Assembly (NCBI GenBank): GCA_030262895.1
Contig: JAJSZW010000001.1
Coordinates: forward strand, 16,360 to 80,359
From: Deltaproteobacteria bacterium
Lineage (GTDB): Bacteria; Desulfobacterota; Desulfobacteria; Desulfobacterales; ETH-SRB1
Direction of reading: 5' to 3'
DNA: 64,000 bases
Shown here: positions 7,832 to 50,175 of the stretch, one piece after another
How the letters are laid out: the number at the start of each line of letters is the position of its first letter
Numbering within the stretch: the first letter of the stretch is position 1
The notes under the pieces: generated by a model
The model's input: only the letters and a program-made list of their open reading frames with translations
Database searches by the model: none
Told to the model about the DNA's origin: nothing
Position numbers and translations under genes: made by a program

Positions 7832-7837
7832 AATTTC

Positions 7838-23478: not shown

Positions 23479-23498
23479 TTCAGGGTTCAAGGTTTTAT

Positions 23499-25733
23499 TC
23501 AAACCGGAAGTTCAATTACAAATTTAGCTCCTTGGGGCTGGTTGTCTTGCACACGTATTCTTCCATTATGATCAGCAATTATAGTGCTGACAATTGTCAG
23601 CCCTAAACCCATTCCAGCTTTTTTGGTTGAAAAATAAGGTTCAAAGAGGCGTGTTTTATCTTCATCGGAAATACCTGCTCCATCATCAGCAACCTCTATT
23701 CTCACCATCTTTAATATAGGGTCATGAGCCAAAGTTATAACAATATTGCCCTGTTTCTTAATTGCAATTATTGCATTGTCAACCAGATTAATCATAGCTT
23801 GCTTTATTTGCTGACGATCAAGATTAATACGCGGGATCTTATCTGAAATTATAACCTTGAAATTAATGTTTTGATGACTTTCTTTGTAAAGTGCTACAGA
23901 CTCTTCGATTATTGGCGGCAATTCACAGGATTCAGGATTCGCCGTTGGGAATCTTGCAAAAGCAGAAAATTCATTTACCAGATTTCGAATCATATCAACA
24001 TGGTCAATTATCATCTGAGTACATTCCTCAAAAATCGGTTCATTTATCTTTTCCGAATATTTCCGTTTAAGTCTTTGGGCCGAAAGCGTTATCGGAGTTA
24101 GAGGGTTTTTTACTTCATGGGCAATCCTGCGAGCAACTTCACGCCACGCTATCATTCGCTGCGCTTTCTCCAAGTCAGTCAAATCATCAAAGACCATAAC
24201 TATACCCATATGGTTTCCGGAATTATCTTTGAGTTCATTAACATGTATCATAAAACTCCGAGGTCTTCCATCTATTGTAAGTTTTAAAGGAAGCTCGACA
24301 TGATCATCATGATAACCGGTAAGATTTTCTATTAGTTCTATTGCAGCGCCAAGATGTCGTCCTTTTAACAGCTTTTTATAGCTTTTGTTTAATATATCCC
24401 CGGATTTAAGATTCAGCATCTTTTCAGCAGACTTGTTAATTGTAGTAATAAATCCATTGGCCCCCAGAGTTATTACACCAGCGGAAACATTCTTTAAGAC
24501 AATTTCCATGTACTGCCGTCTTTCTTCAATTTCCACATTCTGCTCACGAAGCATTCGTGCAGAAAGTTCCAGTTGTTCTCTGCTGCTTCTGAGATCCCTT
24601 GTCATCTTATTAAATGAATCAACAAGACTTCCTATTTCATCATCAGCTACGGCACCTATGCTTACACTTAAATCTCCTTCCGCAACCCTTCGGGTGCCTT
24701 CAGCGAGCTCCATAATTGGTATTGTAATTGTCTTTGCCAGATAAAAACCAAACCATACTGCACAAAAGACAACAAGCAACGCCACTATTGAAAGATTTAT
24801 ATAATAAGTAACCTGAATAGGTCCTTTTAATAATTTTATCTGCTGGTATTCCTCGAAACCTCTTGAAATAGAAGCCATATTTTCTGAAAGATCCGAAGGA
24901 ATAAGAATATTCAATACAACAAATGCCTCGGCATCTTTATGTTTGACTCCAAAAGGGACTGTCCCGATAGTTCTTATTAACTCACCCGTATTAATGTTTT
25001 CAAAAACCGATATTACTTTTTTTGATTCAAAGTCTTTCCGGAGGTTATCTGCTGAAACAAGACTAAGATGTTCATTCTCTGGTCCCCGGACTATGGCAAA
25101 TGTAGTACGTTCTGAATTTATGTTATAAACTTCTACAGCATGGAAATTGAATGCCCGTTGGACTACCTGGATATAATGGGAAAGAGAACTTCTATTTTTA
25201 GGATCTAAAAATTGCTTGGTCTTAATCTGGTATGATATTTTTTCCATGAAAAACTGATTATTTTCCTCTGCATGTTTATAAACACTTCTTCCAACAAGCA
25301 GTGAATTTTCAAGAGCATGCTCGACAGGTACGTCAAACCAGAACTCGATGCTGGTTGTAATAAAATTGATCGAAAAGAAAAACAAAACAATGGTCGGCAG
25401 AAGGGTAAGGGCTATAAATGCAACAACAAGTCTCGTGCGGAGCTTTGCTCCCATGACTTTACGTTTTCTATCATAAAGAAGCTTTACCAGATTCCTGAAT
25501 ACAAGAAATATCAATAAGATAAGTAATAGCAAATTGATATTGATCAGAATGAACATAAGGATTGTGTTGGAAATTGGGATATCAGCTCCAAAATGAACAA
25601 TCCTGCTTTCAGCAAAAGTCAAAACCACTACGACAGCGATTATGGCGACAATCAAAATGCCTTCTCTTTTACGCCTTTTTCGTTCATCTTCTGAAATAAA
25701 GGATTTAAGCTTTTTAAATCTGTTCTTACGCAT
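23499..25733 (-). CDS. NtrY-like sensor histidine kinase (TM-HAMP-PAS-HisKA-HATPase)
   Basis: Multi-TM N-terminus, HAMP, PAS, H-box IAHEVKNPLTPI, ATPase boxes NLVDNAI, DDGAGI, GMGLGL. The ORF-track start 25793 is a TTG overlapping the upstream gene; the ATG at 25733 is preferred. Confidence 0.85.
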   Translation of the reverse strand: MRKNRFKKLKSFISEDERKRRKREGILIVAIIAVVVVLTFAESRIVHFGADIPISNTILMFILININLLLLILLIFLVFRNLVKLLYDRKRKVMGAKLRTRLVVAFIALTLLPTIVLFFFSINFITTSIEFWFDVPVEHALENSLLVGRSVYKHAEENNQFFMEKISYQIKTKQFLDPKNRSSLSHYIQVVQRAFNFHAVEVYNINSERTTFAIVRGPENEHLSLVSADNLRKDFESKKVISVFENINTGELIRTIGTVPFGVKHKDAEAFVVLNILIPSDLSENMASISRGFEEYQQIKLLKGPIQVTYYINLSIVALLVVFCAVWFGFYLAKTITIPIMELAEGTRRVAEGDLSVSIGAVADDEIGSLVDSFNKMTRDLRSSREQLELSARMLREQNVEIEERRQYMEIVLKNVSAGVITLGANGFITTINKSAEKMLNLKSGDILNKSYKKLLKGRHLGAAIELIENLTGYHDDHVELPLKLTIDGRPRSFMIHVNELKDNSGNHMGIVMVFDDLTDLEKAQRMIAWREVARRIAHEVKNPLTPITLSAQRLKRKYSEKINEPIFEECTQMIIDHVDMIRNLVNEFSAFARFPTANPESCELPPIIEESVALYKESHQNINFKVIISDKIPRINLDRQQIKQAMINLVDNAIIAIKKQGNIVITLAHDPILKMVRIEVADDGAGISDEDKTRLFEPYFSTKKAGMGLGLTIVSTIIADHNGRIRVQDNQPQGAKFVIELPV

Positions 25734-27427: not shown

Positions 27428-28663
27428 GCTATTAAGCTGTTGAGCTGTTGAGCTTATCAGCTTATCAGCACTATCGAGTCTATCATAAAGTAGATCAACA
27501 TGATTTTTTAAATTTTGTCTTATTATAGACAGTTCCGGAGCCATTGGATTATATGTATTAACTATGGAATTACATAGTTCCAGCAAATCTGTTTTTGAAA
27601 AGCATGAAATATAGTTTATGAAATCAGTTGCAGGGGTATCTGGAATTAAATTATTGTAAGATAGTTGGGACAGACCCTTTAAAAAGCCTTTTAGTGTTCC
27701 CTCAACGGCAATATTATCAGACCAGACTATTTCTCCGACGCCATCAAGCCTGTCAAGGCGGTTTCTTATTGAAAGATTAAGAAAAAATACAAGCATAGCT
27801 TCAAGCATTAAATAGATGTCACTATCTGTGTTATTTTTTGCGGTTTCATTTTTATTTTCAAGCATTGGCGCATATTGCCTGACTGTAATGAGCTTCATTT
27901 CCATATTGTTTTTTTGAAGTTTTATGACAAAATCTCCTGCCGCATGATGCCATGGAAATATTTGCTCAAAAGTCTCAGCATTATAGTAGCAGGTCAAAAT
28001 CATGGCTACCTGGCTGTATAGTTCCAGGGTTTCATCATCTGAAAGTAAAAAGTTTCCTTTTTCATGATCCCATACAACTATTTTTATACTTGAGTCTGTT
28101 TTAGCTTGTTTATATTTATTTTGGGAAATATGAAATTCATTAAAACCTTCGAACCATTCCCCCAAAAACATGCTGATTTCAACGTTTTTATTTTTTATAC
28201 ATATTTCACCCCGGCTATAAACTTTTGGAATAAATGAAAACGAAAACTCATTATTGAGTTTATTTAGAATTTCGAACTCCCTTTTAATAAAACCTTTGCC
28301 TGCACTTGATATGGCAGCGTTTAATACAAAAAGGATTCTTGATCCATTAATAAAGGTTTCAATCCTTGCGGGATGGTAAAATTCTCCATGTTTTTCCAAA
28401 TAGATACGTATTTCTTGTATTTCTTCGGGCTTTATCTTTTGATTTAAATGTTGAGAGATTGCAGAAGTAATAGATTTAAATTCGTCTTTTTCCAAAAAAG
28501 AGCGGATAGCATAAAAATAATCTCCATAAGTTACAGAAATTTCTTCAGCTTTCTGCGGCTTTTTAATGCTTAATGGAATTGGTAATGACCAGATGTCGGT
28601 TTTTTCATCTATAAAGTATTTTTTACTTTGAAGATAGTACTTGAATTGAGGCTTAGGGGGCAT
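27410..28663 (-). CDS. Hypothetical protein (417 aa), possibly a kinase/phosphotransferase-like fold
   Basis: Long uninterrupted ORF with coding-like composition. The only weak clue is FPWHHAAGDFVI. The last ~20 codons are encoded by an AGCTGTTG/AGCTTATC word repeat. Confidence 0.55.
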   Translation of the reverse strand: MPPKPQFKYYLQSKKYFIDEKTDIWSLPIPLSIKKPQKAEEISVTYGDYFYAIRSFLEKDEFKSITSAISQHLNQKIKPEEIQEIRIYLEKHGEFYHPARIETFINGSRILFVLNAAISSAGKGFIKREFEILNKLNNEFSFSFIPKVYSRGEICIKNKNVEISMFLGEWFEGFNEFHISQNKYKQAKTDSSIKIVVWDHEKGNFLLSDDETLELYSQVAMILTCYYNAETFEQIFPWHHAAGDFVIKLQKNNMEMKLITVRQYAPMLENKNETAKNNTDSDIYLMLEAMLVFFLNLSIRNRLDRLDGVGEIVWSDNIAVEGTLKGFLKGLSQLSYNNLIPDTPATDFINYISCFSKTDLLELCNSIVNTYNPMAPELSIIRQNLKNHVDLLYDRLDSADKLISSTAQQLNSSPKGR

Positions 28664-28675
28664 TTTTTATTAAGT

Positions 28676-28714
28676 CAAAAAAATGCGGCCCAATAAATAC
28701 TTAATTTGGGCCGC
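28676..28714 (-). terminator. Rho-independent terminator after the TPR gene
   Basis: The minus strand reads gcggccca-14 nt-tgggccgc followed by attttttt. Confidence 0.7.
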
Positions 28715-28733
28715 TTGATTAATTTAAGGTGAA

Positions 28734-29354
28734 TTATCTGTACTTATCAATTTCTTTTAGAATTTCAGGAGCTACCTCATAACCGAATTTGCTTGCTTTA
28801 TCACAATTTTCAACGGCTTTGTCATATTCACCTTTTTCCAAATACGCTATTGCTAAATTGTTGTAAGCAACTGCAAAATCAGGATCGAGTTCAATTACTT
28901 TTAAATTGGCTTCTATGCTTTCATCAATCAAGCCCGACATTAAATAAGCGCTTGCTAATGTAGAATGAGCCTGAATAAACCTGGAATTAAAAGTGAGAGC
29001 TTTTTTAAGGGCTGCGATAGCTTCTTCCGCCTCTCCCCTTTGAAGATGAACAAATCCCATATTACCATAACCTTCGAAAAAACCGGCCCTTGCCTTTGTT
29101 GCCCGTTTGTTGTATTCAAGGCAGCCGTCCAGGTCACCACGCTGCAGGCAGATCCCTCCAAGTTGTACGTAGGCTTCGGCAAGGCTTGGGCTGCAATCTA
29201 TCGCAGCATGCAGTTCTTTCTCAGCTTCATTGTATTTTTTCTGACCCATCAGGCCTACTGCAAGGTTATAGTGGGATGTTCCGCAATCCGGATTTGAAGC
29301 TACGCCGGTCCGTTGCATAGCAATATATTCTTCGACATTTTTTGCTTTTGGCAT
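28734..29354 (-). CDS. Tetratricopeptide-repeat protein
   Basis: 206 aa with repeated 34-aa TPR-like units (AxxxYxxLGxxxxxxGxxxEAxxxxxKAL pattern). Confidence 0.8.
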   Translation of the reverse strand: MPKAKNVEEYIAMQRTGVASNPDCGTSHYNLAVGLMGQKKYNEAEKELHAAIDCSPSLAEAYVQLGGICLQRGDLDGCLEYNKRATKARAGFFEGYGNMGFVHLQRGEAEEAIAALKKALTFNSRFIQAHSTLASAYLMSGLIDESIEANLKVIELDPDFAVAYNNLAIAYLEKGEYDKAVENCDKASKFGYEVAPEILKEIDKYR

Positions 29355-38263: not shown

Positions 38264-38632
38264 TCAAATCCAGGTTATCATCACCGTTCCAATTACTATT
38301 GAAATTATTCCAAACAGCCTGTAAGTTTGATCCGAAGCTGTATTTAAATACCAGTTCCTGATATTATCAAAAGAATTTTTGGGATTAAAAAGAACAAATA
38401 ATCCTTTGCCTATTGCAATAATTCCAAGAACTACTATGAACCAGAAGCCTTGTGCCTGAAATGCTGAAATAATAAGCAGAAGGCCTATTATAATTGCTGA
38501 AGCTGCAATAATTTTTTCATAATTTTTAGTCAGCACATTTTTAAGCAGCTCTCTGCATTGTATGGTATAAAGAATAAAACATGAACCTGACGCGATCAAA
38601 CTAAAACTAATAAGATAGAGAAACCATTTCAT
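38264..38632 (-). CDS. Small integral membrane protein (4 TM), unknown function
   Basis: 122 aa, strongly hydrophobic. Last gene of the minus-strand radical-SAM operon. Confidence 0.55.
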   Translation of the reverse strand: MKWFLYLISFSLIASGSCFILYTIQCRELLKNVLTKNYEKIIAASAIIIGLLLIISAFQAQGFWFIVVLGIIAIGKGLFVLFNPKNSFDNIRNWYLNTASDQTYRLFGIISIVIGTVMITWI

Positions 38633-38647
38633 TGCCGATGCACTCCT

Positions 38648-38731
38648 TTCACGGTTTACAGTTAACGGTCTACAGTTAACTGTTGCTCAAAAATATAAAA
38701 CTATTAACTGTAAACCGACAACCGTGAACCG
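38648..38731. repeat. GTGAACCG-word hairpin element (copy e)
   Basis: ttcacggtttacagttaacggtctacagttaactgtt - loop - aactgtaaaccgacaaccgtgaaccg. Confidence 0.75.
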
Positions 38732-38737
38732 CTACAA

Positions 38738-40276
38738 TTATAGATTTTTATTTATCCTTTCAAGATTCTCCCTTACAGAAGCCATACCAGGATCCAAAGA
38801 CAGGGCTTTTTTGTACATCCTAATTGCCATGTTAAGATCTCCTTTTTCGCGGTAATTTGATCCAAGGCTGGCATAATCAATAGCTGAAAAAGGATCAATT
38901 TCAACAGCTATTTTAAGGTTTTCAATAGACTTGTCATAGTCTTTAAGCTTGAAATAAGAAAAGCCGAGAGAGTTATAAACTTCTTTCACATTACCTGCCG
39001 TTTCCTTAGCCTTTTCCAATTCGCCTACGGCCTGTTCATACTTTCCAAGGTTGTTGAAACATGTTCCTCTATAGATCAAAATCCTGATCCGGTCATCATG
39101 TTGGGGCTTCGAGCGCAAGGCATTTGAAAATTCCTCCAGGGCTGTGGTATAGTTTTCTGTTCCAAAATAACAAAGCCCCTTGTAGAAGTGGAAAAAGTAC
39201 TGCCCCTGATATGCTATCTCAACACTTTTAAAGGCTTTAAGGGCTTGATCGTAGTGTCCGATTTTTGTGTATCCAAGGCCAAGTCGGAAATAAATAGGAT
39301 CGGTTTCTTCAATTGGAGAGAGGTTTAGGGATTGCTTAAAGTTTTTTATTGCCTGGAAATCGTCTTCTGAATCCTGGCGTAACATTCCAAAATGATAGAG
39401 CAACGCTCCTATTTCTTGGTCAGTTGCAAGCGACTTGGGCAAATCTACAAAAGAATCAAGCATTTGTTCTCTGCATCCAAGGCAGTCTCTTTTCGACTTA
39501 TCCTGTTGATAATAATCGGCCAAAAGTTCTTCCAGGCTGCGCATTTCATAAATTTTTGCCATACCTTCATTTTTGAGGAATGCATCCATGCAACAGTAAA
39601 CATTACCATCTTGAGCCGAGATAATAAGCGAATCCGGACAAGATTCTGTCATAGACAAGTCGTTATTCTCTAACTTATCCAATGAATCATCAAGGATATC
39701 TTGACGAAATAGATTGCAAACGATGTCTGTCATCTCTCTGGAGTTTCCGATGCCGTAATAAACCTTGTCCGTCAAAGACAGAAGCTTTTCATCTTGAGCC
39801 AGATCTAAAGTGTCCTTGTTCAGGTAAAGGCTGGACAACAAAAAAGAGTTTTTTAGCACATCAAGGAGGTCAATGAGTTGGATGGGCTTGACCTGGTCAT
39901 TGGGAACAAGAACCGGCAGCAATATGAGTCTTGGCAATTCCTGGTGTCTGTAACCTTCCTGGTCAAATTTGTCAGTTGACTGTTTCAGGTATTTGTAACA
40001 TAGTCTTATGTCATCCATGGCCGATGGGGGGGCAGGATGGACAATATGAACATAAAGCCTGGCAAAGAGGTGCTCACTGAGAAACTCGTTGATATTTTTC
40101 TGGATACGTTCCACCTGGGGCATGCCGGCAGGAAGATTTTCCGAAACAATATAAATATTTGATGTCAGGTTAAGATGTGAATACAGGAACGATAACGTCT
40201 GCAAAACCCATTCAAGATTTTCCTTATCTTGTTCGCCAAGTATTATATATATTTTCTTAAATGCAGGCTTGGTCAT
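38738..40276 (-). CDS. TPR protein with a novel Cys-containing N-terminal domain
   Basis: The C-terminal ~200 aa are TPR units. The N-terminal ~300 aa have no recognisable family but contain CPDS...DGNVYCCMDAF...CLGC. The ATG at 40276 is preferred over 40363, which would overlap the upstream gene by 71 nt. Confidence 0.65.
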   Translation of the reverse strand: MTKPAFKKIYIILGEQDKENLEWVLQTLSFLYSHLNLTSNIYIVSENLPAGMPQVERIQKNINEFLSEHLFARLYVHIVHPAPPSAMDDIRLCYKYLKQSTDKFDQEGYRHQELPRLILLPVLVPNDQVKPIQLIDLLDVLKNSFLLSSLYLNKDTLDLAQDEKLLSLTDKVYYGIGNSREMTDIVCNLFRQDILDDSLDKLENNDLSMTESCPDSLIISAQDGNVYCCMDAFLKNEGMAKIYEMRSLEELLADYYQQDKSKRDCLGCREQMLDSFVDLPKSLATDQEIGALLYHFGMLRQDSEDDFQAIKNFKQSLNLSPIEETDPIYFRLGLGYTKIGHYDQALKAFKSVEIAYQGQYFFHFYKGLCYFGTENYTTALEEFSNALRSKPQHDDRIRILIYRGTCFNNLGKYEQAVGELEKAKETAGNVKEVYNSLGFSYFKLKDYDKSIENLKIAVEIDPFSAIDYASLGSNYREKGDLNMAIRMYKKALSLDPGMASVRENLERINKNL

Positions 40277-40292
40277 TATTTTATTGTTCCGT

Positions 40293-41576
40293 TCACGACA
40301 CAATTCGTTTTCCGCCATCCAGGGAATTAGCTTGCCACATTTGTCGGATCTGATGTAACTCACTGCGGCCCATGTAATCGGTTTCGTACTGAGACCCGAT
40401 AGACAGATAGGCTGGACGGTTGTTGTTCAACGGGCGTATATTGTAGTCCTCATAATGTTGAGCCATATGTGTACCAAAATAGATTTGCAATTGCTGGGAG
40501 TTTGTATTGCCCATTATCTTGACCTTGTTTTTCTTCACAAACTCCAGGGTTTTCACCGCATCCTCAAAGGTCTCATAAGGAAGGCCGTATATGGTAAAAA
40601 GTTCAACTTCTATGCCCTGGTTCTGTGCAAGCCTAATTGCCTCGGCCACCTTTTCACTGGTTATATGCTTACCCAGCCTTGACAGGACACGCTCTGAGGC
40701 CGACTCAAGTCCAAAGGCAATGGTACTTACACCCGCCCTTTTCATTTTTTTCAGCAACTCCGGAGTTACAAGGTCCGCACGAGTCTGCAACCACATTTCA
40801 GTCTCAAGACCTTCTTTTAGGATTCTATCAAGAATTTCTATAAGCCGTGACGGCTTATAAGAAATATTCGGATCAGCAAACCAAAATCTCTTTACACCTT
40901 TTTTTCTTATCCATCTGATTTCTTCAATAACTCTTTCAACGGAATGAAAGCTTATTTTGTGCTTGAAGGCATGGGGGGTGTAACAGTATATGCAGTGGTG
41001 CGGACAACCGCGAGAGGTCAGCATAATTGCCTCCCTCATGCGTGAGTAATCAAAAACGTCATCCAGATAGGCTGAGGGATAACGATCTAAATCGCTGTAG
41101 CCTTCAAGCTCCGGTGTATCAAAAACAGCATTATTGTCATCTTTGTAACTAACGCCGGAAAGATCCAAAAATGGCGTTCCATTTTCAATAGCTCGCGCAA
41201 TTCCCAGCAACGTAGGCTCGCCCGGAGATCGGCATATATAATCTACATCAGGTAGCTCTGCAAAAGCAGCAGAAGGCATGAAGGTAGCCTGAGGACCGCC
41301 AATAGCTATCTTAATATTATTGTCAATCGATTTTATGAATTTGGCAAGTCCTGTTATATATAGCATAATTCTCTGATAGGCGGAAAACCCAATCAGGGAA
41401 GGTTTAAAGGTGCTGATAAGCTCCTGAAAAGCGGAATGTGATAAGGAAGTGTTTTGTCCAATAGACAATATTTTTACACTAAAGCCTTTGGATTTGAGGA
41501 AGGACGCAATATATCCCAGTGAGACAGGTGTTGTTTCCTGTACAAAAGGGTTTATTTCAATCAGCAGAACATTCAT
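40293..41576 (-). CDS. B12-binding-domain radical SAM enzyme
   Basis: N-terminal cobalamin-binding-like domain, then the radical SAM CxxxCxxC motif (GCPHHCIYC). The ATG at 41576 (MNVLLIE) is preferred over 41615. Confidence 0.8.
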   Translation of the reverse strand: MNVLLIEINPFVQETTPVSLGYIASFLKSKGFSVKILSIGQNTSLSHSAFQELISTFKPSLIGFSAYQRIMLYITGLAKFIKSIDNNIKIAIGGPQATFMPSAAFAELPDVDYICRSPGEPTLLGIARAIENGTPFLDLSGVSYKDDNNAVFDTPELEGYSDLDRYPSAYLDDVFDYSRMREAIMLTSRGCPHHCIYCYTPHAFKHKISFHSVERVIEEIRWIRKKGVKRFWFADPNISYKPSRLIEILDRILKEGLETEMWLQTRADLVTPELLKKMKRAGVSTIAFGLESASERVLSRLGKHITSEKVAEAIRLAQNQGIEVELFTIYGLPYETFEDAVKTLEFVKKNKVKIMGNTNSQQLQIYFGTHMAQHYEDYNIRPLNNNRPAYLSIGSQYETDYMGRSELHQIRQMWQANSLDGGKRIVS

Positions 41577-41881
41577 AGAGAAAAGTTTTATAGGAAACAG
41601 ACAGGTTAATGTCAAGGTAAAACGTAACTACTTAGGTTCGCGGTTTTTTTTAAAATGAATTTTTGGCTACCAACTTAAGGCGGAACGCTTCTGATCAAAA
41701 ACCCTGTCAAGAAAAATATCTTGTTGTTTTCAAAAAAATCATGTTTGCTGTTTGAGCCATATATTGCTATAAATAAAATCCACCTGCACACGTTTTGCCG
41801 ATTTTGTGGGGTATTTATAGACCAGCTATTTCAAATGGCAAAAACCGCTCAATTTAGGTTTAAACAAAGGAAGATGTAAAA

Positions 41882-42121
41882 ATGAATAAGGCAGCCTTAA
41901 CAAAGCATGAGATTTACAATAAGCTGTTTGGATTTACCGAACATGATTTAGATGCTATTGCCAATTTTATCGATTTTATGAGGCATAAGAAAAAGCTTGA
42001 AACAAAAAAGGTATTCAAACTTGAAGGCATTCTTAAGGATCATGATATAGACTTTTCTGATCTGAAGGAGTTCAAACAGCAAACCTGGAAGCATGTTGAC
42101 CAGGAGTTTGGAAATGGATAG
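41882..42121 (+). CDS. Antitoxin-like small protein (DUF2281/VapB-like)
   Basis: 79 aa with an IANFIDFMRHKKK-type helix. Its stop overlaps the ATG of a PIN-like ORF (ATGGATAG), the classic toxin-antitoxin gene coupling. Confidence 0.55.
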   Translation: MNKAALTKHEIYNKLFGFTEHDLDAIANFIDFMRHKKKLETKKVFKLEGILKDHDIDFSDLKEFKQQTWKHVDQEFGNG

Positions 42122-42224
42122 TTTTGTGACCGACACTCAGGCCCTTGTAAAATTTATGATGGGCAAAAAGCCAGGTAGGGTGCATTCTATGCACTATCAA
42201 CGGCATATGGTATCATCTATATAA
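42114..42224 (+). pseudogene. Truncated PIN (VapC-like) toxin, only ~19 native codons left
   Basis: MDSFVTDTQALVKFMMGKK resembles a VapC N-terminus with the first catalytic Asp. The reading frame then runs into REP doublet A and stops. Confidence 0.45.
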
Positions 42225-42306
42225 TGATAAAATGTCTTGATGAGCAAAATTGAATGTTTTTTGGTGCGTAAAACACGCCCTGCGGTTTACAAACAATGAT
42301 TGAGCA
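42169..42306 (+). repeat. REP doublet A (two inverted GTAG-hairpin REPs plus spacer)
   Basis: gtagggtgcattctatgcac and, inverted, ggtgcgtaaaacacgccctgc. About 85% identical over ~140 nt to 46189..46329. Lies directly upstream of the RayT remnant. Confidence 0.8.
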
Positions 42307-42312
42307 CGGCTT

Positions 42313-42450
42313 ATGCCGAACTATCGACGGGCAAATATTAAAGGTGGCGCTTATTTCTTTACCGTGGTGACTTATCGGCGACAAAATTTCTATGCAATAA
42401 AAATGTCCGAAAGGCATTACTTGATGGTATCCGGCATAGGGTGGGCGATG
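42313..42450 (+). pseudogene. REP-associated tyrosine transposase (RayT/TnpA_REP) 5' remnant, frameshifted and truncated
   Basis: MPNYRRANIKGGAYFFTVVTYRRQNF matches the RayT N-terminus (E. coli YafM has YYIKGGTWFFTVNLRNRR). A 1-nt loss in a T-run near 42388 shifts the frame to LCNKNVRKALLDGIRHRV. Similarity ends near 42440, and that frame continues into the methyltransferase ORF. Confidence 0.7.
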
Positions 42451-42494
42451 ATAAAACGGTTTGTAACAAAACAATTTTGATAGGATTTGCTACA

Positions 42495-45353
42495 ATGGCT
42501 ACTAATTCCCTTCAATTAGTTGACTTTATTAACCCTGACGGCATTTATATCCCAGGTTTGATACCTATAGGCAGCGCCACGGATACGATAGGTCTTAGCA
42601 TCGACGAGCAAGTTGCGGTCTTTGATGCTGAGTCGTTTAAACACATAAATTTCGTATTTTTTCGCCGTTTTTCAGATGGCCGATCATCTCAAATTTTGGC
42701 TTACGTTGTCGATAACTCTGACGAACGGCTTGACGAAAAGGCATTAGCCGAACTTCACTTGCAGGTTTGGCTTCATGGTACGGCGCCATTGCTCTATATC
42801 GCCTGGCCAAGTCGAATTGATGTGTTGACATGCGCGCGAGGACCGGATTTCTGGAAAGCTGAAAACGAGGAGTGCCAGTATAATCCTGCGAAGAGACTTG
42901 AAGCTGAAGCTCTGAAAACTGCCGGCGCTATCACCAGTGAACTACAAAAGTTCTCAGCGTTGCGCCTTGCTGATGGAACATTTTGGGAAGAGCCTGGCAA
43001 TAAGAAATTAGCAGACCACGACAAGGCGGCGCACCAATCGCTAATTCAGGCAGTGGTGGAAGCTGATAGTGATCTTGATGGAGAAAAAAATCCTATTCTA
43101 CGTCGTCTGCTTCTGTTAATGGTGCTGATTAAGTATCTTGAGGATCGCCGAGTCTTTCCAAATAGAGGTTGGTTTGGCACGTTCCACAAAGGAGCAAAAA
43201 GCTTTTTTGATGTCCTGCAAGGCGGTGAACCTGAAGAGGTAAACAGGCTGTTGAATTTCCTAGAACGAAGATTCAATGGTGACATATTTGCTTTCCAGCG
43301 AGAAGATATCACAAAATCAATCCTTAAAACATTTGCATATCTTGTTGAAGCCAAAACGCTGAAAAAGCAGCGATACCTTTGGCAGCAATTTTCTTTCGAG
43401 CATCTGCCGGTTGAAATAATCAGCCATCTGTACCAGCGATTCGTTGAGGGCGGGCATGGTACTGTTTACACGCCTCCTTTCCTGGCATCTTTGCTTTTGG
43501 ATCACGCAATACCCTACGATAAAATCACCGGTAGAGAACGCATTTTAGACCCGGCTTGTGGATCGGGAGTTTTTCTTGTTGGAGCATTCCGGAGATTGGT
43601 CAATGTCTGGCGTAGTCGTAATGACTGGGAGCGTCCAAACGTCAATACTCTTAAACGAATTCTTATAGAGAGCATTTATGGGATCGAATTAGATTCAAAC
43701 GCTGTTGATCTGACAGCGTTTAGCTTGTGCCTGGCTATCTGTGATGCATTACAGCCGGATGTCATCTGGCGAGACTTAAAATTTAATCCTCTGCGCAAAT
43801 CAAATCTGTTTGAAGCAGATTTTTTTAGCGTTCTTCTTGAATCCCAGCAAGGTGAATCTATTGTTTGTGAAGGAGGATTCGATGTAATCATAGGCAATCC
43901 GCCCTTTGAATCCAAACTTTCAACCGCCGGGGAAAAAGTTAATAAAATTGCTCAACAGCAAGACAGTATTCGCGGAAAACTGCCGGACAAACAAACGGCA
44001 TATCTATTTCTGGAACAGGCATTGAATCTTCTTCGGCCTAACGGCAAAATTTGTTTAATTCAGCCATCGGGCCTGCTGTATAATCGCAAGACCGAAAACT
44101 TTCGTAATGCAATAGCTCGAAAGTGCAGAATCAAGACAATCCTTGACTTTACTTCTATTCGCAAACTCTATGAAGCGGACCCTAAAACCGTTGCAATATT
44201 TGCTGAAGTGGGTAAACCCAAAGAAAATCATTGGATTGCTCACTGGACATTTCGTCGAACAGTAAGTGTCAACGAGAGGATCTGCTTTGAACTGGATCAT
44301 TACGACCGGCATCGTGTTACACAAAAACAGGCCGAAACTGATTCCTTTGTATGGCGTGCGAATCTTCTTGGTGGCGGACGATTGCTTGATATGTCACAAC
44401 GTCTTCGGAGCATGCGTACACTTGCAGAATATGTTGAGCAGAATGGATGGGATTATGGGGAGGGGTTCATCGCCGGAAAAACGGGGAAACGAGCCCCCGC
44501 ACCTTTTTTAACGGGCAAGCCATTTCTTCCTACTCGGGCTTTCACCGATTCGGGTATTGACGAGACCAAAATTGAAACGGTTACAGATACACTATTTGAG
44601 AGCCCAAGATCAGAGGATCGTTTTACTCCACCACTCATTTTAATAAAAGAGAATGAGTCTCTCCCAGTTGTTTTTTGGAATAAAGGGTTTATTGCATACC
44701 GCGATAAGATCGTTGGAATCCATGCGCTCAAGTCCCAGGTTTCTGACCTACGCAACTTTTATAAATTTTTCCTCAGTAATCACGACATCTATCGGTTCTG
44801 TTGCACCCTGAATGGAACACAATCGTTGGTGGGCAAGTCCACCGCGATCCTTAAGCAAGATCTTGATATATTGCCTTGTCCCGAAGATTCGGAAGACCTT
44901 TCTTTCTCTTTTTGGGAGGAGGCGCTATGCGAAGATGTCCTTAAATATATGACCAGCTATGTACGACTCGGACAGAATTCAGAGTTACTAAAAACAGCAG
45001 CGGATATCAACGATCTTCGAGAGTATGCCGGCATGTTTATTCGTATGCTTGGCAGTGTATACGATAACTTGCAGGCATCCGACCCTGTTTTTCTTAATGG
45101 ATTGACCTGCCAACCATTCTATTTTGGCGAACGCCCAAATCTCAACTGGCTTACTGAACATCCGGAAGATGAACTGCGAAAACTTATCTATAGCGAAAAT
45201 CACGAACATTTGCGGACAGTCAGGTTGTTGCGATTGTACTGCGAAAACGTCCTGTTGCTTGTGAAGCCGGACCGGTTACGTTACTGGATACGCTCAACAG
45301 CAATTCGAGATGCCGATGAGACTCTTTTAGATTTACGCAGGCAGGGATACTAA
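42495..45353 (+). CDS. Large N6-adenine DNA methyltransferase with MmeI/PglX-like architecture (N-terminal domain, helical connector, gamma-class MTase, C-terminal specificity region)
   Basis: Motif I ILDPACGSGVFLVGAF, motif IV IIGNPPFES, and TVYTPPFLA upstream. Connector LRRLLLLMVLIKYLEDRRVF...FLERRFNGDIF. The ORF track starts at GTG 42441, inside the RayT remnant; the first ATG is 42495 and the true start is uncertain. Confidence 0.8.
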   Translation: MATNSLQLVDFINPDGIYIPGLIPIGSATDTIGLSIDEQVAVFDAESFKHINFVFFRRFSDGRSSQILAYVVDNSDERLDEKALAELHLQVWLHGTAPLLYIAWPSRIDVLTCARGPDFWKAENEECQYNPAKRLEAEALKTAGAITSELQKFSALRLADGTFWEEPGNKKLADHDKAAHQSLIQAVVEADSDLDGEKNPILRRLLLLMVLIKYLEDRRVFPNRGWFGTFHKGAKSFFDVLQGGEPEEVNRLLNFLERRFNGDIFAFQREDITKSILKTFAYLVEAKTLKKQRYLWQQFSFEHLPVEIISHLYQRFVEGGHGTVYTPPFLASLLLDHAIPYDKITGRERILDPACGSGVFLVGAFRRLVNVWRSRNDWERPNVNTLKRILIESIYGIELDSNAVDLTAFSLCLAICDALQPDVIWRDLKFNPLRKSNLFEADFFSVLLESQQGESIVCEGGFDVIIGNPPFESKLSTAGEKVNKIAQQQDSIRGKLPDKQTAYLFLEQALNLLRPNGKICLIQPSGLLYNRKTENFRNAIARKCRIKTILDFTSIRKLYEADPKTVAIFAEVGKPKENHWIAHWTFRRTVSVNERICFELDHYDRHRVTQKQAETDSFVWRANLLGGGRLLDMSQRLRSMRTLAEYVEQNGWDYGEGFIAGKTGKRAPAPFLTGKPFLPTRAFTDSGIDETKIETVTDTLFESPRSEDRFTPPLILIKENESLPVVFWNKGFIAYRDKIVGIHALKSQVSDLRNFYKFFLSNHDIYRFCCTLNGTQSLVGKSTAILKQDLDILPCPEDSEDLSFSFWEEALCEDVLKYMTSYVRLGQNSELLKTAADINDLREYAGMFIRMLGSVYDNLQASDPVFLNGLTCQPFYFGERPNLNWLTEHPEDELRKLIYSENHEHLRTVRLLRLYCENVLLLVKPDRLRYWIRSTAIRDADETLLDLRRQGY

Positions 45354-45355
45354 AC

Positions 45356-46075
45356 ATGAATAAGGAGCGCACTGAAGGAAAACTCACATCCGGAATTGAT
45401 CGGGCCACGAGTACGCTTGTTCTGAGAACGATCACCTTTGTGCGTCAGCAATTGCCGGCCTGGAGGGACGACCCTGATCGGCCTGATGAACAATTAGAAA
45501 ACAAATTGAATTTGCAATTGTGCAAGTTCCTCGACTCACGCGCCAGGAACGATTTTCCTATGGTTCGCTTTGATCATGAAGAGTATCAGACAGGGCGTCG
45601 TAGCGTCGATCTTTCAGCATCTCCGGTTGAAAAAATGGTAATCGGTGCACAAATGTATGCCATCTACAACCCTTTCCTCGTCTTTGAATGTAAGCGACTT
45701 CCTGCCCCTTCAAAAGACCGTAAAAAGGAGTATGTTACAGGAGGGGTAGATAAAATAAGTGGCGGGATTCAACGATTTAAACTTGGCCTTCACGGCGCAG
45801 GTCTGGATTCTGTAGTAATGATTGGTTATGTGCAAGAGTACTCCTTACGCTACTGGTTCCGCAAAATCAATGAATGGATTTCGGAACTTGCCATCAGCGC
45901 CATAGCAGATACCTGCATTTGGAATGATAGCGAATTACTTGAGATGATAGATGAATACGTGCCAAAGGGTCTCGCGACCTGTCGATCTGTCCATATGCGA
46001 ACTGATAGCACGACGAGTAGTGATATAACAATCCATCATCTTTGGATTGCGATGAACAGGCAACCCGAAAAATAA
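45356..46075 (+). CDS. PD-(D/E)xK nuclease-like protein, partner of the methyltransferase
   Basis: 239 aa. Starts 3 nt after the MTase stop. Candidate catalytic core: DHEEY, RRSVDLS, then ~25 aa, then LVFECKRL. Confidence 0.6.
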   Translation: MNKERTEGKLTSGIDRATSTLVLRTITFVRQQLPAWRDDPDRPDEQLENKLNLQLCKFLDSRARNDFPMVRFDHEEYQTGRRSVDLSASPVEKMVIGAQMYAIYNPFLVFECKRLPAPSKDRKKEYVTGGVDKISGGIQRFKLGLHGAGLDSVVMIGYVQEYSLRYWFRKINEWISELAISAIADTCIWNDSELLEMIDEYVPKGLATCRSVHMRTDSTTSSDITIHHLWIAMNRQPEK

Positions 46076-46188
46076 TACGATTGATTCGGCAAATGAACCG
46101 ATTTAGTCAAGAACTTGCAGAATCTGTTGCAGGCCGCCGATGTTTACCTTATGGGAATTTATGTAGAAGAAAGTAGTGGACATCCCAT

Positions 46189-46329
46189 AGCCAGGTAGGG
46201 TGCATTCTATGTACCATCAGCGGCATGCCTATCATCGCATACATGAATGATAAAATATCTTGACGGGCAAAATCGAATGTTTTCTGGTGCGTAAAACGCA
46301 CCCTACGATTTACAAACAATGATTGAGCA
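46189..46329 (+). repeat. REP doublet B
   Basis: gtagggtgcattctatgtacc and, inverted, ggtgcgtaaaacgcaccctac (perfect REP hairpin gggtgcg-tttta-cgcaccc on the minus strand). Direct repeat of 42169..42306. Followed by fic instead of rayT. Confidence 0.8.
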
Positions 46330-46364
46330 TGATCTGATATGCAAGGAACTTAGGGAAATATATT

Positions 46365-47192
46365 ATGCTTAGTTTTTTAGAAGGTCTTGACGGCGATATT
46401 TGCAAAGCGCTTATGGCTCAACTGCGCAACCTCTGGACACACACATCTACGGCGATTGAAGGCAATACCCTGACTCTTGGTGAAACAGCATTTGTTCTTG
46501 AGGAAGGGCTTACGATTTCAGGCAAATCTCTCAAGGATCATGAAGAGGTTGTTGGACACGCCAGGGCAATTGATTTTGTTTATGATCTTATTAGAAGAGA
46601 ATCCGATCTAACTGAAAAAGACCTGTTTGATTTGCATAAGGCTGTGCAGACGGAACAGATTTTTGATGTCTATAAGCCCGTTGGCGCATGGAAAGTAGAA
46701 CCGAATTCCACGGTTGTTGTTTCCGGCGATACCCAGACCATCTTTGAATATGCTCTCCCAAAAGATGTGCCGGAACTCATGCAAAGCTGGCTTGCCTTGT
46801 TTCAAGAAACCTGTAAAGAAAATGTAGTAAAAAAAGAGGCGGCATTGACAGCCTATGTGTATCTTCATGTTTCCTTTGTCAGAATTCATCCGTTTTGGGA
46901 CGGAAATGGCCGGATGGCTCGTCTCATCGCAAATGTTCCTGTAATCAGGGCTGGTTATCCCCCTATCATTATTCCAAAAGAGCGTCGTCAGGAATACATA
47001 GAGGCCCTGTCGGAATATCATCTATCGGTAGGCACTGTTACCGCCCGGAGTGAATTGTTGCCTGATGTTAATAAGCTGGACAGGTTCAAACAGTTCTGCG
47101 CTGAATCCTGGTCAGGGTCGATCAAGTTGGTGGATAATGCCCGTAGAAAGCAGCAGGAGCGAAACCAACAGAAAAACAAAGGTATTAAATAA
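46365..47192 (+). CDS. fic: Fic-domain protein (AMPylase family) with N-terminal auto-inhibitory motif
   Basis: Active-site motif HPFWDGNGRMAR, which fits HxFx(D/E)GNGRxxR. The N-terminal STAIEG fits the (S/T)xxxE(G/N) inhibitory helix. Confidence 0.85.
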   Translation: MLSFLEGLDGDICKALMAQLRNLWTHTSTAIEGNTLTLGETAFVLEEGLTISGKSLKDHEEVVGHARAIDFVYDLIRRESDLTEKDLFDLHKAVQTEQIFDVYKPVGAWKVEPNSTVVVSGDTQTIFEYALPKDVPELMQSWLALFQETCKENVVKKEAALTAYVYLHVSFVRIHPFWDGNGRMARLIANVPVIRAGYPPIIIPKERRQEYIEALSEYHLSVGTVTARSELLPDVNKLDRFKQFCAESWSGSIKLVDNARRKQQERNQQKNKGIK

Positions 47193-47306
47193 AAGATCGT
47201 CTCATCTACCAGACAAAATTAGCACTGGATGCCCCCAAGCCCTGAATACGCCCGGAGAAAAGCATTCAAAAAATCTGTAATTGTCGGCTAAACTTATAGG
47301 TTTTCG

Positions 47307-47445
47307 CAGATGAATTGATACTCTATATTGCATGATGCGACCAATGTAACACTGTGTATAGTATGCTGATTTTTAGCGCCTAAGCGCAGATTCCCTTTTT
47401 TTAAGTGAAATCAAGAGGATATATATTTTAGTATCAATTCATGTG
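47307..47445. repeat. Small palindromic element at the right edge of the island
   Basis: cagatgaattgatact (47307..47322) and agtatcaattcatgtg (47430..47445) are 15/16 complementary, flanking ~107 nt. Confidence 0.6.
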
Positions 47446-47460
47446 CGAAGATCTATAGGT

Positions 47461-50175
47461 TTAATTATAATTGTCGCTCATATTGCGCAGAACGTAAGCC
47501 AGTATCCCGCCATGCCTGTAGTAACTGAGTTCTATTGGAGAATCAATTCTTGCAATGACCCGGAATTCAGTTTTTTTGCCGTCTTTTCCTTGAGCAAAAA
47601 CACTGAGTTCCTTCAACGGCTCAAATTTATTTTCTATTCCAGCTACTTCATAAATCTCTGTTCCATCCAGACCCAGGGATTTATGGTTTTCACCCTGTTT
47701 GAACTGGAGCGGCAGGATTCCCATACATATTAGGTTGCTTCTGTGTATGCGTTCAAAACTTTCAGCAATTACCGCCTTTATACCTATGAGATATGTTCCC
47801 TTGGCGGCCCAGTCGCGTGAACTGCCGGTACCATAATTTTTTCCTGCAATTACAAGCAATGGCGTAGCTTCTTTTTGGTATTGCATTGCCGCTTCATATA
47901 TTGTCATTTTTTGTCCATCTGGTAAAAAAACCGTCCAGCCGCCGTCAATGCCGGGTACAAGCTTATTTTTTAAGCGGATGTTTCCAAATGTTCCTCTCAG
48001 CATTACTTCATGATTCCCGCGGCGTGAACCAAACGAATTAAACTCAGAAGGAGTTAAACCCTGGTCGATAAGATATGCCCCTGCCGGGCTGTCAACCGGA
48101 ATTACCCCTGCCGGCGATATGTGATCGGTTGTTATGCTATCGCCCAGCAATGCCAGAATCCTGGCTCTTTTTATATCCTGAAGTTCAGGAATTGTTTTGT
48201 TTATGTCTTTTAAAAAAGGGGGTTCTTTGATGTATGTGGATTTTGAGTCCCAATTAAAGAGTGTTCCTTCAGGAACAGGGAGAGTTTTCCATTGATTTGA
48301 TCCTTCAAACGCATTTTCATAAGCTTTTTTATACATTTCAGGACGTATAACTCTTTTCACGGTGTTTTTAATTTCTTCTGTGGATGGCCAGATTTCACGA
48401 AGATATACAGGCTTGTCGTTGTTATCCAATGCAATTGGTTCTTTATCAAAATCAATATTTATCTTTCCGGAAATTGCAAAAGCAATGACTAATGCCGGTG
48501 AAGCGAGGAAATTCGCTCTGGTAAGAGGAGAAATTCTTCCTTCAAAATTGCGGTTGCCGCTGACAACAGATGCTGCCACAAGGTCATGGTCTTTTACCGC
48601 ATCAGCTACCGCCTTTGGCAGAGGGCCGCTGTTTCCAATACAGGTAGCACATCCATATGCCACAAGATGGAACTTTAAAGCCTCAAGATACGGCATAAGC
48701 TCTGCTGCTTTTAGATAATTGATTGCAGCTTTTGATCCTGGAGCAAAGCTGGTTTTGACCCATGGTTTTACTGATAGTCCCCGTTCAACGGCTTTTTTGG
48801 CCAGCAGTCCTGCGCCGATCAGGACATTTGGATTTGATGTATTGGTACAGCTTGTGATTGATGCAATTACAACTGATCCGTGGCTGATCTTAAATTTTTC
48901 GCCATGCATATCTATATCAATTTCATTTTTTATACTAACTTCTGTAGATGGTCCGTCAGTTGAAGACGCATCCTTAAAGTCATTTAAAAAAGTTTTTTTG
49001 ATTTTAGAGAGAGGAATTCTTTCTTGTGGACGTCTTGGGCCTGCCATGCTCGGCTCTATGTCGCTCATGTCGAGTTGTATTGTATCGTTAAAAAGCGGAT
49101 CTTCCGTTGTTTTTGTTCTGAAAAGCCCCTGTTCTTTACAATAGCTTTCTATCAGGGTAATAACTTTTTCAGAGCGACCGGTTAAACGAAGGTATTTTAT
49201 TGTTTCATCATCCACAGGGAAAAAACCCATTGTTGCACCATATTCAGGAGCCATATTTGCTATAGTAGCACGATCTTCCAAGCTTAAGGCATTAACGCCG
49301 GGTCCAAAGAATTCAACAAATTTTCCAACCACTCCTTTTTTTCGCAGTAACTCGGTAATGGTGAGCACCAGATCTGTGGCTGTTGTTCCTTCAGGTAGTT
49401 CGCCGGTTAATTGAAAACCTGTCACTTGTGGCGTAAGCAGGTAATATGGACTGCCCAGCATAACAGCTTCCGCCTCTATACCTCCGACGCCCCAGCCGAC
49501 CACACCGATTCCATTGATCATTGTTGTATGTGAATCAAGGCCGACAAGGGTGTCAGGGAAAGCCATCCTCTGGCCGTCATTATTTTTGACAAATATAACT
49601 CTTGCAAGATATTCCAGGTTTACCTGGTGTATTATACCCGTGGCTGGAGGTACGACGCTTAAATTTTCGAAATTTTTCTGGCCCCATCGCAAAAAGGTGT
49701 ATCGCTCAAAATTACGTTTGAATTCTTTTTTAACATTATATTCAAAAGATTCTTTGGACCCAAAAGAATCAACCTGAACCGAATGGTCTATGACCAGCTC
49801 AACAGGAATATGAGGATTTATCTTTATTGGATTTATCTGCAAACGTTTTGCAGCTTCACGCATACCAGCCATATCCACTAAAGAGGGGACTCCGGTAAAA
49901 TCCTGCAACAGTATGCGGGCAGGCATAAAAGGCACTTCATGATATACCGGGGCATCAGCTTTCCATCCGGCCATATTTTCTATATCGCTTTTTTTTATAA
50001 TATTACTGTCTTCATTTCTAACAAGGTTTTCAAGCAAGATTTTTATGCTAAAGGGCAATCGGTCAATTCCAGTAAAACCGGAATCCGCTAATTTGCTGAG
50101 ACTGAAATAATTAACTTGACCATCTGAAGTGTTTAAGGTGGATTTTGTTCCAAAACTGTTCTTGAAATCAGCCAT
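47461..50175 (-). CDS. acnA: Aconitate hydratase A
   Basis: 904 aa. AcnA/IRP-type aconitase throughout, with Fe-S ligand regions (ITSCTNTSNP, YGCATCIGNSG). Confidence 0.95.
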   Translation of the reverse strand: MADFKNSFGTKSTLNTSDGQVNYFSLSKLADSGFTGIDRLPFSIKILLENLVRNEDSNIIKKSDIENMAGWKADAPVYHEVPFMPARILLQDFTGVPSLVDMAGMREAAKRLQINPIKINPHIPVELVIDHSVQVDSFGSKESFEYNVKKEFKRNFERYTFLRWGQKNFENLSVVPPATGIIHQVNLEYLARVIFVKNNDGQRMAFPDTLVGLDSHTTMINGIGVVGWGVGGIEAEAVMLGSPYYLLTPQVTGFQLTGELPEGTTATDLVLTITELLRKKGVVGKFVEFFGPGVNALSLEDRATIANMAPEYGATMGFFPVDDETIKYLRLTGRSEKVITLIESYCKEQGLFRTKTTEDPLFNDTIQLDMSDIEPSMAGPRRPQERIPLSKIKKTFLNDFKDASSTDGPSTEVSIKNEIDIDMHGEKFKISHGSVVIASITSCTNTSNPNVLIGAGLLAKKAVERGLSVKPWVKTSFAPGSKAAINYLKAAELMPYLEALKFHLVAYGCATCIGNSGPLPKAVADAVKDHDLVAASVVSGNRNFEGRISPLTRANFLASPALVIAFAISGKINIDFDKEPIALDNNDKPVYLREIWPSTEEIKNTVKRVIRPEMYKKAYENAFEGSNQWKTLPVPEGTLFNWDSKSTYIKEPPFLKDINKTIPELQDIKRARILALLGDSITTDHISPAGVIPVDSPAGAYLIDQGLTPSEFNSFGSRRGNHEVMLRGTFGNIRLKNKLVPGIDGGWTVFLPDGQKMTIYEAAMQYQKEATPLLVIAGKNYGTGSSRDWAAKGTYLIGIKAVIAESFERIHRSNLICMGILPLQFKQGENHKSLGLDGTEIYEVAGIENKFEPLKELSVFAQGKDGKKTEFRVIARIDSPIELSYYRHGGILAYVLRNMSDNYN

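Follow-up and report, generated by a model that had tools for sequence, protein, structure and literature searches.

The analyzed stretch of Deltaproteobacteria bacterium contig JAJSZW010000001.1 (64,000 nucleotides; the window, to whose positions all coordinates refer) carries a 5,855 bp accessory island, 41624–47478, between acnA and a gene for a B12-binding radical-SAM protein (rSAM), in place of the ∼44–180 bp spacer that separates these genes in relatives. We conclude, at a probability of roughly 85%, that this island now fills a cargo site whose content varies between strains, a small hotspot of defence and addiction genes, and that the island was assembled stepwise and is not one element. 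An empty site, both junctions, segments with separate distributions and separate divergence, and alternative cargos in sibling strains were all observed. Every open reading frame (ORF) between rSAM and acnA lies on the plus strand, in the order 79-amino acid (aa) ORF, PIN stub, RayT stub, 952-aa Eco57I/N6_Mtase protein, 239-aa ORF (p239) and Fic. A preliminary description had placed an island here at 41620–47460 and had listed an antitoxin, a PIN toxin, two doublets of repetitive extragenic palindromes (REPs), a RayT remnant, a methyltransferase with a partner, a Fic gene and a palindrome at the end. ORF, domain and repeat searches recover each of these components, and the proposed borders were right to ∼20 bp.

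The empty site was found by comparing the radical-SAM protein with one genome per species, which gave 37 orthologous loci, all in metagenome-assembled genomes (MAGs) of uncultured Desulfobacterales or 'Deltaproteobacteria', several of them labelled Eth-SRB1. Loci and contigs of relatives that were compared with the window are given L-numbers, and 222 loci were fetched. In seven genomes, at two phylogenetic depths, acnA directly adjoins rSAM: these are L007 and L008, where rSAM is ∼90% identical at the nucleotide level, and L012, L016 (Eth-SRB1), L020 (Ca. Desulfaltia bathyphila), L025 and L035, at 70–76% protein identity. The wider order RsbRD-acnA-rSAM-TPR-p231 is retained in L007. The gene order of the window is therefore not conserved, and the synteny and empty-site comparison bears out an accessory island at this position. 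DNA similarity to the empty-site alleles stops at ∼41623 and resumes at 47479, inside the last acnA codons.

The left border contains the rSAM promoter region and is shared by every close relative, regardless of which genes precede it; similarity ends at 41622–41627 in every allele, just upstream of the rSAM −35 hexamer. Next to it, as comparison with relatives shows, is a degenerate remnant of the ancestral acnA-rSAM intergenic palindrome, and the true left junction falls somewhere within this remnant. The right junction is at acnA codon 899. The native acnA stop was replaced by the insertion, because the protein ends in LRNM-stop in L007 and in LRNMSDNYN-stop in the window. The same SDNYN tail is present in L213, and the right border common to L213 and the window comprises ∼47249–47294 plus 47456–47478, tail included.

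Sibling strains, found by lookup of the exact antitoxin protein, have flanks 95–99% identical to the window and hold other cargo at the same site. In L213 and L219, rSAM and the antitoxin gene are followed by an intact 129-aa PIN gene, a 497-aa type IIG-like fragment and an NTase_sub_bind/NTP_transf_2 pair (PDC-S09); L213 runs on into acnA, and the L219 contig ends earlier. L215 carries DUF499, DUF3780 and a DUF1156 methyltransferase, L220 a second PIN/PhdYeFM pair, and L218, with flanks 97.9–99.3% identical to the window, a 1696-aa DruE-like helicase with a SNF2 protein. PADLOC matches across the alleles include REase_MTase_IIG, PDC-S04, DruE, DUF499/DUF3780/DUF1156_MTase and PDC-S09. The locus thus has the conserved core flanks and empty site of a hotspot, different cargo in close strains, and cargo of defence type. 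Defence-island hotspots known from E. coli and Pseudomonas pan-genomes resemble it in these respects, as well as in having toxin-antitoxin (TA) modules alongside. It differs from them in being very small (∼4–6 kb), in having no integrase or tRNA anchor, in belonging to an uncultured syntrophic sulfate-reducer lineage, and in having as its left anchor a TA pair that is destroyed in the window allele.

Base composition gives a modest but real signal that would not carry the argument alone. The island has a GC content of 0.430; the figure is 0.397 for the window as a whole, while rSAM and acnA have 0.431 and 0.417. Equal-sized windows vary with a standard deviation of 0.019, and the island ranks in the top 5.7% of them by GC and in the top 2.6% by tetranucleotide distance. 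Both the highest GC and the largest tetranucleotide distance of the 5.9-kb windows in the 64 kb are centred on the island; the distance there is 0.206–0.213, against 0.155 ± 0.022, and the lowest correlation is 0.87. The profile is thus not flat. The preliminary description had reported, from hand counts, a higher GC inside the island than in neighbouring genes; the island is indeed the most deviant stretch, but the contrast was overstated, given neighbours at 0.417–0.431. Elsewhere in the window we note GC troughs (0.32–0.33) at 6001–7000 and 27501–29000, and a raised tetranucleotide distance (0.19–0.20) with normal correlation at 23001–25500.

Several observations weigh against a cargo site acquired and refilled in this way. 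The island hardly differs in GC from the genes immediately beside it. At its ends there is no intact integrase or transposase, no tRNA and no att-type repeat; searches of the whole window gave no tRNA, integrase or intact transposase domain. Classical islands are expected to have an integrase, a tRNA or flanking att repeats, and these are lacking here. Finally, in other close relatives, namely L002, L003, L005/6, L009 and L031, the rSAM promoter is preceded by unrelated housekeeping or secretion genes: Mut7-C, RtcB, trigger factor, gyrB, and SNF2 together with type VI secretion genes. Either larger rearrangements have therefore used this breakpoint as well, or some of the MAG contigs are chimeric.

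The last point raises the question of whether the window arrangement could itself be a chimera of assembly or binning, since the source is uncultured and known only from MAGs and its close relatives differ upstream of rSAM. We consider this extremely improbable. The same junctions recur in independent NCBI, ENA, JGI and Logan assemblies; two Logan contigs that are 100% identical to the window jointly cover 39957–47308, and with it the left junction and the internal joins, and three separate contigs, L067, L069 and L072, contain the right junction with acnA.

It is also very improbable that the region is ancestral and that the 'empty' alleles are secondary deletions. Two relatives lacking the island, L002 and L031 (94–95% rSAM identity), are closer to the window than is the TA-bearing L004 (93%), and losses or rearrangements have therefore certainly happened. 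However, adjacency of acnA and rSAM is seen at ∼90% identity and again at 70–76%, in different named lineages (Eth-SRB1 and Ca. Desulfaltia), and the empty alleles keep a native acnA stop and the intergenic palindrome, which is reduced to a remnant in the window. The deviating composition of the island, and the occurrence of its cargo families across phyla at 60–70% identity, likewise speak against an ancestral region.

With respect to the palindrome itself, the ancestral acnA-rSAM spacer contains it as GGTTCA/TGAACC-type repeats (L008 1790–1910; L007 9915–9953; window 41624–41660). At least five close relatives have rearrangement breakpoints no more than ∼25 bp away from the palindrome, immediately 5′ of the rSAM −35 hexamer. 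The palindrome could be a site prone to recombination, or else the terminator of acnA. The positions of the island features and their borders are listed in Table 1.

Table 1. Features of the acnA-rSAM island and its borders, in window positions.
Feature	Position	Strand	Remarks
rSAM, B12-binding radical-SAM gene	40293-41576	-	ORF and domain search; TPR gene next
Left border, rSAM promoter region	41577-41623	-	TTGACA 41615-41610, 17-nucleotide spacer, TATAAA 41592-41587; hexamers read from sequence
Degenerate remnant of ancestral intergenic palindrome (GTGAACC-type repeats)	41624-41660	.	compared with L007, L008, L001
79-aa antitoxin, orphaned	41882-42121	+	homologue contexts
PIN (VapC-type) toxin stub, codons 1-19 only	42114-42170	+	cut by REP doublet A
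REP doublet A (REPIN-like)	42169-42310	+	REPs 42175-42194(+), 42264-42283(-), then rayT leader
rayT pseudogene, 55-codon ORF	42313-42480	+	codons 1-26, 1-nucleotide frameshift, break at 42431
Travelling unit: rayT fragment, methyltransferase and 239-aa gene	42432-46089	+	90% nucleotide identity elsewhere
952-aa gamma-class N6-adenine DNA methyltransferase	42495-45353	+	motif I LDPACGSG, motif IV NPPF, long conserved C-terminal region
239-aa partner protein p239	45356-46075	+	no known family; putative PD-(D/E)xK nuclease (D85, E111-x-K113)
Low-divergence block: spacer, REP doublet B, Fic, end element	46076-47478	+	compared with L067-L072
REP doublet B	46189-46330	+	REPs 46195-46214(+), 46287-46306(-), plus rayT leader copy
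275-aa Fic protein	46365-47192	+	HPFWDGNGRMAR motif; N-terminal S-x-x-x-E-G inhibitory motif, read from translation
150-bp MITE-like element	47304-47453	.	19-nucleotide inverted ends 47304-47322, 47430-47448
New acnA C-terminus, SDNYN and stop, from island DNA	47461-47478	-	right junction 47478/47479
acnA	47461-50175	-	ORF and domain search

The antitoxin at the left end of the island has 356 homologues, one of which, 80% identical, is named DUF2281 by UniRef; the 79-aa protein itself has no Pfam or NCBIfam match. In every context examined it is followed by an overlapping 129-aa PIN gene, with an overlap of 8 nucleotides in all intact copies. Sequence identity between the sibling strains and the window is complete as far as 42170 (PIN codon 19), after which the siblings go on into an intact toxin. 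Because the siblings and L004 run on from codon 19 in this way, we conclude that REP doublet A cut off the 3′ part of the window PIN gene; the preliminary description had called the toxin 'decapitated', although it is the head that is kept. Intact 129-aa PIN genes are present in L004, L213 and L218, and the L004 copy matches PF01850 at 1.2e-11. The antitoxin-PIN pair is an older segment of the island. These intact copies, in which the 79-aa gene overlaps the PIN gene, are like VapBC-type pairs (a DUF2281-like antitoxin with PIN). The window differs from such pairs in that the toxin is down to 19 codons and the antitoxin is left alone, with no intact PIN gene downstream of it.

Beyond the PIN stub, the island contains the remains of a REPtron. 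REP doublets A and B are direct repeats of 142 bp with 89–92% identity, and each contains two inverted GTAG-tagged hairpins, copies of GTAGGGTGC-N6-GCAC. This pattern matches four times in the 64-kb window, always at the island, whereas 0.02 matches are expected by chance, and the hairpins fold with z-scores of −4.0 (42172–42200, doublet A) and −4.5 (the REP tested in doublet B). The REP core was found in at least 120 metagenome stretches, ∼10 of which have RayT homologues beside the REP. One of them, L124, contains an intact REPtron with a REP doublet, a 182-aa rayT (1044–1592) and a further REP, to which window 42169–42431 aligns at ∼88–90%. The window rayT is a pseudogene. NCBIfam REP_Tyr_transpos (NF047646) matches the stub over model positions 1–25 of 146 (9.4e-5), and a further 42 nucleotides (42432–42473) correspond to rayT codons ∼76–89; the catalytic HUH region is absent, as tblastn and alignment give no counterpart of the HLH region found in the L124 RayT.

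The system that this locus resembles, the REPtron or REPIN-RAYT system, is the subject of Nunvar 2010 and of Bertels and Rainey 2011 (PMC3116915). The likeness lies in the inverted GTAG-tagged REP hairpins flanking rayT and in the close match to L124. The differences are that the window has no intact RayT with HUH and a catalytic tyrosine, only the 55-codon pseudogene, that its four REPs in 64 kb are all at one locus, and that a foreign cassette of 3.6 kb is joined to rayT at about codon 89. In L124 (860–3910) we also observed a 363-aa ATPase-like ORF after the intact rayT and a further copy of the REP doublet at 3803–3909, so that REP copies bracket a cargo gene there as well. The same REP core occurs elsewhere in regular tandem arrays (L103 8709–8790, L158 5980–6092 and L100 3604–4029), with a period of 31 bp in two contigs and of 66–133 bp in the third.

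The cassette joined to rayT, which consists of the methyltransferase gene and the p239 gene, is found in other neighbourhoods together with its rayT fragment, corresponding to window 42432–46077 in L199–L202 and to 42444–46089 in L203–L205. All of these loci share a fragment of rayT codons 67/76/81–89 joined to the same methyltransferase leader. Since their homology to the window starts within the rayT fragment, this form of the cassette stems from a junction with rayT and has carried that scar along in its later moves. Two simpler accounts of the join were rejected. Insertion of the cassette into rayT should have left the 3′ part of the gene on the other side, and alignment to the 3′ end of the L124 rayT gave no convincing remnant between p239 and doublet B. 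Derivation of the stub by one internal deletion does not agree with the second rayT piece, 42432–42473, which travels with the cassette in other contexts. In L199 a REP variant (GCAGGGTACATCCCATGCACC) lies directly 5′ of the rayT fragment. The L199 copy (1–7086) is situated downstream of a 1023-aa SMC_N/AAA_15/AAA_23 protein and a 683-aa N6_N4 methyltransferase, and these surroundings look like another defence-type neighbourhood.

The arrangement of the doublets suggests a further possibility, which is that 42169–46330, from doublet A to doublet B, is a REP-bounded composite unit that was moved by a RayT acting in trans and carried the restriction-modification cassette as a passenger. The 142-bp direct repeats do flank the rayT stub and the cassette; the cassette keeps its rayT fragment in three different contexts, with a REP variant just upstream in L199 and L201; REP copies surround the ATPase cargo beside the intact rayT of L124, and the REP class is widespread, sometimes beside RayT genes. 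We nevertheless think such a unit unlikely. The other contexts lack the doublets (there is no GTAGGGTGC core in L199–L204) and their left ends differ, no target duplication was found at the doublets, and the rayT 3′ end is missing after p239. Moreover, the established substrates of RayT-type enzymes are short REP or REPIN DNAs (PMC3116915, PMC3337134), and 4-kb units are not known among them.

Both genes of the cassette have features worth describing. The methyltransferase matches the Pfam families Eco57I (2.9e-25) and N6_Mtase (2.3e-19) as well as the MmeI_Mtase domain, and LDPACGSG and GNPPF are invariant in alignments of its homologues. Its sequence and fold matches in the PDB are PglX, BsaXI, CamA, BpuSI and DrdV. 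The C-terminal region is unusually conserved, with 65–70% identity across phyla, and the full-length AlphaFold2 (AF2) model is poor (mean predicted local distance difference test score, pLDDT, of 65; predicted TM-score, pTM, of 0.39). Pfam and PADLOC models revealed no recognisable nuclease domain in the 952 residues, since alignment to the PADLOC type IIG models starts no earlier than residue 138 or 197. All NCBIfam scores fall far short of the cut-offs, with 63 bits against 720 for MADS MAD2 and 56 against 500 for PglX, and ORF and domain searches found no PglZ, BrxC or other MADS genes nearby, so that membership in BREX (as PglX) or MADS is not indicated.

The enzyme is thus similar to type IIG (Eco57I-MmeI) enzymes and to BREX PglX in being of the gamma class of N6-adenine methyltransferases with motif I and NPPF. 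The likeness extends to a long helical N-terminal part and a C-terminal region of DNA-recognition type, and the closest matches of the enzyme are the type IIG models, BpuSI, DrdV, PglX and CamA. Unlike type IIG enzymes it has no detectable nuclease domain and is always followed by a separate, conserved 239-aa protein.

This partner, p239, lies directly downstream of the methyltransferase in eight independent contexts, including alphaproteobacterial plasmids. In the contexts inspected the methyltransferase has ∼950 aa, but 816 aa in one plasmid. The cassette is beside AbiE in D. oleivorans, beside a SIR2 gene and a Mu transposase in Agrobacterium plasmid pTiAg57, and beside AbiH and Tn3 in an Asticcacaulis plasmid; two other contexts are chromosomal. 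The D. oleivorans locus (L073; Desulfosudis oleivorans CP000859, 3760737–3777450) contains AbiEi/AbiEii, an AAA_14/DUF4143 protein and an antitoxin-PIN pair. We considered this pair as a relative of the window TA pair and rejected it, the two being unrelated on comparison. This organism is cultured and its genome is complete, and it offers a tractable strain for the cassette.

The p239 family has 1873 homologues, with 60–70% identity across Planctomycetota, Bacteroidales, Nitrospirota, Desulfosudis and Thiosymbion. A profile search gave 828 representatives at 50% clustering, nearly all of them stand-alone proteins of 210–250 aa, and no fusion to a methyltransferase was seen among the top 150 representatives. 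PGAP labels p239 a hypothetical protein. In the family E111 is invariant and D85 and K113 are nearly so; in the AF2 model (pLDDT 83.9) the three residues are on consecutive predicted strands, and the predicted strand order is compatible with a PD-(D/E)xK core. What speaks against a nuclease is that a PDB profile search, BFVD, and Pfam searched to an E-value of 10 gave no significant match to p239; because of this, the assignment is drawn from the D...ExK motif and the strand order.

With these properties, the pair presumably works as a restriction-modification-like system in which methylation of N6-adenine by the methyltransferase would label the host's own DNA and p239 would act as the nuclease. 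We tentatively suggest, at somewhat less than even odds, that it is an undescribed two-gene system of this kind, a 'split type IIG' with a nuclease from a new PD-(D/E)xK-like family, which spreads here attached to a fragment of a REP-associated transposase. It is widely distributed: clustering at 50% identity gives ∼830 groups, from many phyla and also from conjugative plasmids of alphaproteobacteria, and we found no described Eco57I-type two-gene system in the literature that matches it specifically.

The remainder of the island, beginning immediately after p239, has a different history. In L067–L072 the low-divergence block is 99–100% identical to the window, with 2–5 differences in 1,403 nucleotides (∼0.1–0.4%), whereas the same strains have 97.8–98.8% identity in the methyltransferase, 94.6–97.2% in p239 and 97.7–98.1% in acnA. 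Given this ∼0.1–0.4% divergence against ∼2% in its neighbours, the block was shared or homogenised more recently than they were.

The Fic protein in the block matches Pfam Fic (1.1e-15) and the PADLOC models PDC-S04 (4.7e-31) and SoFic (5.8e-21). Its HPFWDGNGRMAR segment fits HxFx(D/E)GNGRxxR, and the upstream STAIEG fits (S/T)xxxE(G/N); from general knowledge of Fic proteins we take the latter to be the inhibitory helix. The protein is like class II Fic, PDC-S04 and SoFic proteins in its Fic motif, its upstream S-x-x-x-E-G and its PDC-S04 match. It differs from SoFic, scoring 18 bits against an NCBIfam cut-off of 550, and no partner gene is present. These motifs suggest an auto-inhibited AMP-transferase of the PDC-S04 defence-candidate type.

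The block ends in an element that resembles a miniature inverted-repeat transposable element (MITE). Its inverted ends have the sequence TCGCAGATGAATTGATACT, and a 9-bp direct repeat, TATAGGTTT, flanks it at 47295–47303 and 47454–47462. L213 lacks the element and has a single CTTAGGTTC at the site, where the window has 161 extra bp. The preliminary description had seen a terminal palindrome at 47307–47445; a palindrome is present, with wider arms (47289–47322 and 47430–47463; 34 nucleotides, 88% complementary), and its nature is that of a MITE-like insertion. We rejected the palindrome as an island end or terminator, since the comparison with L213 shows that these 150 bp were inserted later and are flanked by a duplication. 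Of the two, the acnA tail SDNYN is the older, because L213 has the tail without the element. On the acnA transcript the element forms a long hairpin (RNA fold z −4.1). An Rfam scan of 41000–48000 gave no match. Its size of 150 bp, 19-nucleotide terminal inverted repeats, flanking target-site duplication and a precise empty site in a sibling allele are all as in MITEs. It is unlike them in being single-copy in all sequence searched: neither the window nor the 222 fetched loci contain another copy, and no autonomous relative or parent insertion sequence was identified.

These observations also bear on whether the island could have come in as a whole, in one event, as an integrated mobile element (for instance a decayed integrative element or a transposon). 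Its cargo genes are all on one strand and are bounded by REP doublets and a terminal inverted repeat, and the entire 5.9 kb is present in several strains at 96–98% identity. Yet neither an integrase, an intact transposase or a tRNA nor matching end repeats were found, the terminal palindrome is a later insertion inside the border, and the segments occur apart, the TA pair with other cargo and the cassette alone elsewhere. The segments also differ in divergence, and 'mosaic', as the island had been called, describes it well. The single-element explanation is already largely refuted, and we give it very little credence.

Stepwise assembly at a cargo site accounts for these features, and we propose the following history. 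In a single lineage of uncultured relatives of Eth-SRB1 within the Desulfobacterales, insertion of the antitoxin-PIN pair and the right-border sequence at the acnA stop codon would have opened the site once, between the radical-SAM/TPR operon and acnA. In the sub-lineage of the window, the PIN body and earlier cargo would then have been replaced by a dead REPtron (REP doublets and rayT stub) carrying the two-gene methyltransferase/p239 cassette, joined to rayT at about codon 89. A second REP doublet and the Fic gene may have followed, as the block most recently shared between strains, and finally the 150-bp MITE-like element would have landed in the right border. Turnover of the cargo was probably mainly by homologous recombination in the conserved flanks (rSAM and antitoxin on one side, acnA on the other) after uptake of DNA from related strains, and local, occasional illegitimate joins would have accompanied this exchange. 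The antitoxin and the REPtron are presumably non-functional remnants in the window allele. In contrast, the methyltransferase/p239 pair and Fic are likely to be functional cargo, as their reading frames and motifs are intact.

Two small genes outside the island are also variable. Some relatives have and others lack a 122-aa membrane-protein gene that lies at 38264–38737, flanked by the TPR gene and the 231-aa gene: L007, L008, L213, L214 (=L067), L217 and L219 are without it, and L001/L216, L002, L004, L006, L027 and L031 have it, a distribution independent of the island allele. An 82-aa ORF at 7744–7992 on the minus strand is 87% identical over 55 aa to an ORF located near rSAM in L005 (2102–2425) and L006. 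This hints that the small gene may occupy different places in related genomes.

Taken together, the interpretation of this region as an accessory island is supported, and the observations on which it was first based are partly confirmed. Defence hotspots are well known, and the island is an ordinary example of one, documented in unusual detail; only the methyltransferase/p239 pair, with its unannotated partner, has real potential for novelty. As a case of defence-gene turnover the locus is fully mapped: it offers an empty site and both junctions, together with at least four other cargos and sub-segments that are dated. Its host belongs to an uncultured lineage of syntrophic sulfate reducers, in which the biology of mobile elements is hardly known. 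The methyltransferase and its 239-aa partner, a small protein unnamed in protein-family libraries, are a concrete candidate for a restriction-modification variant.

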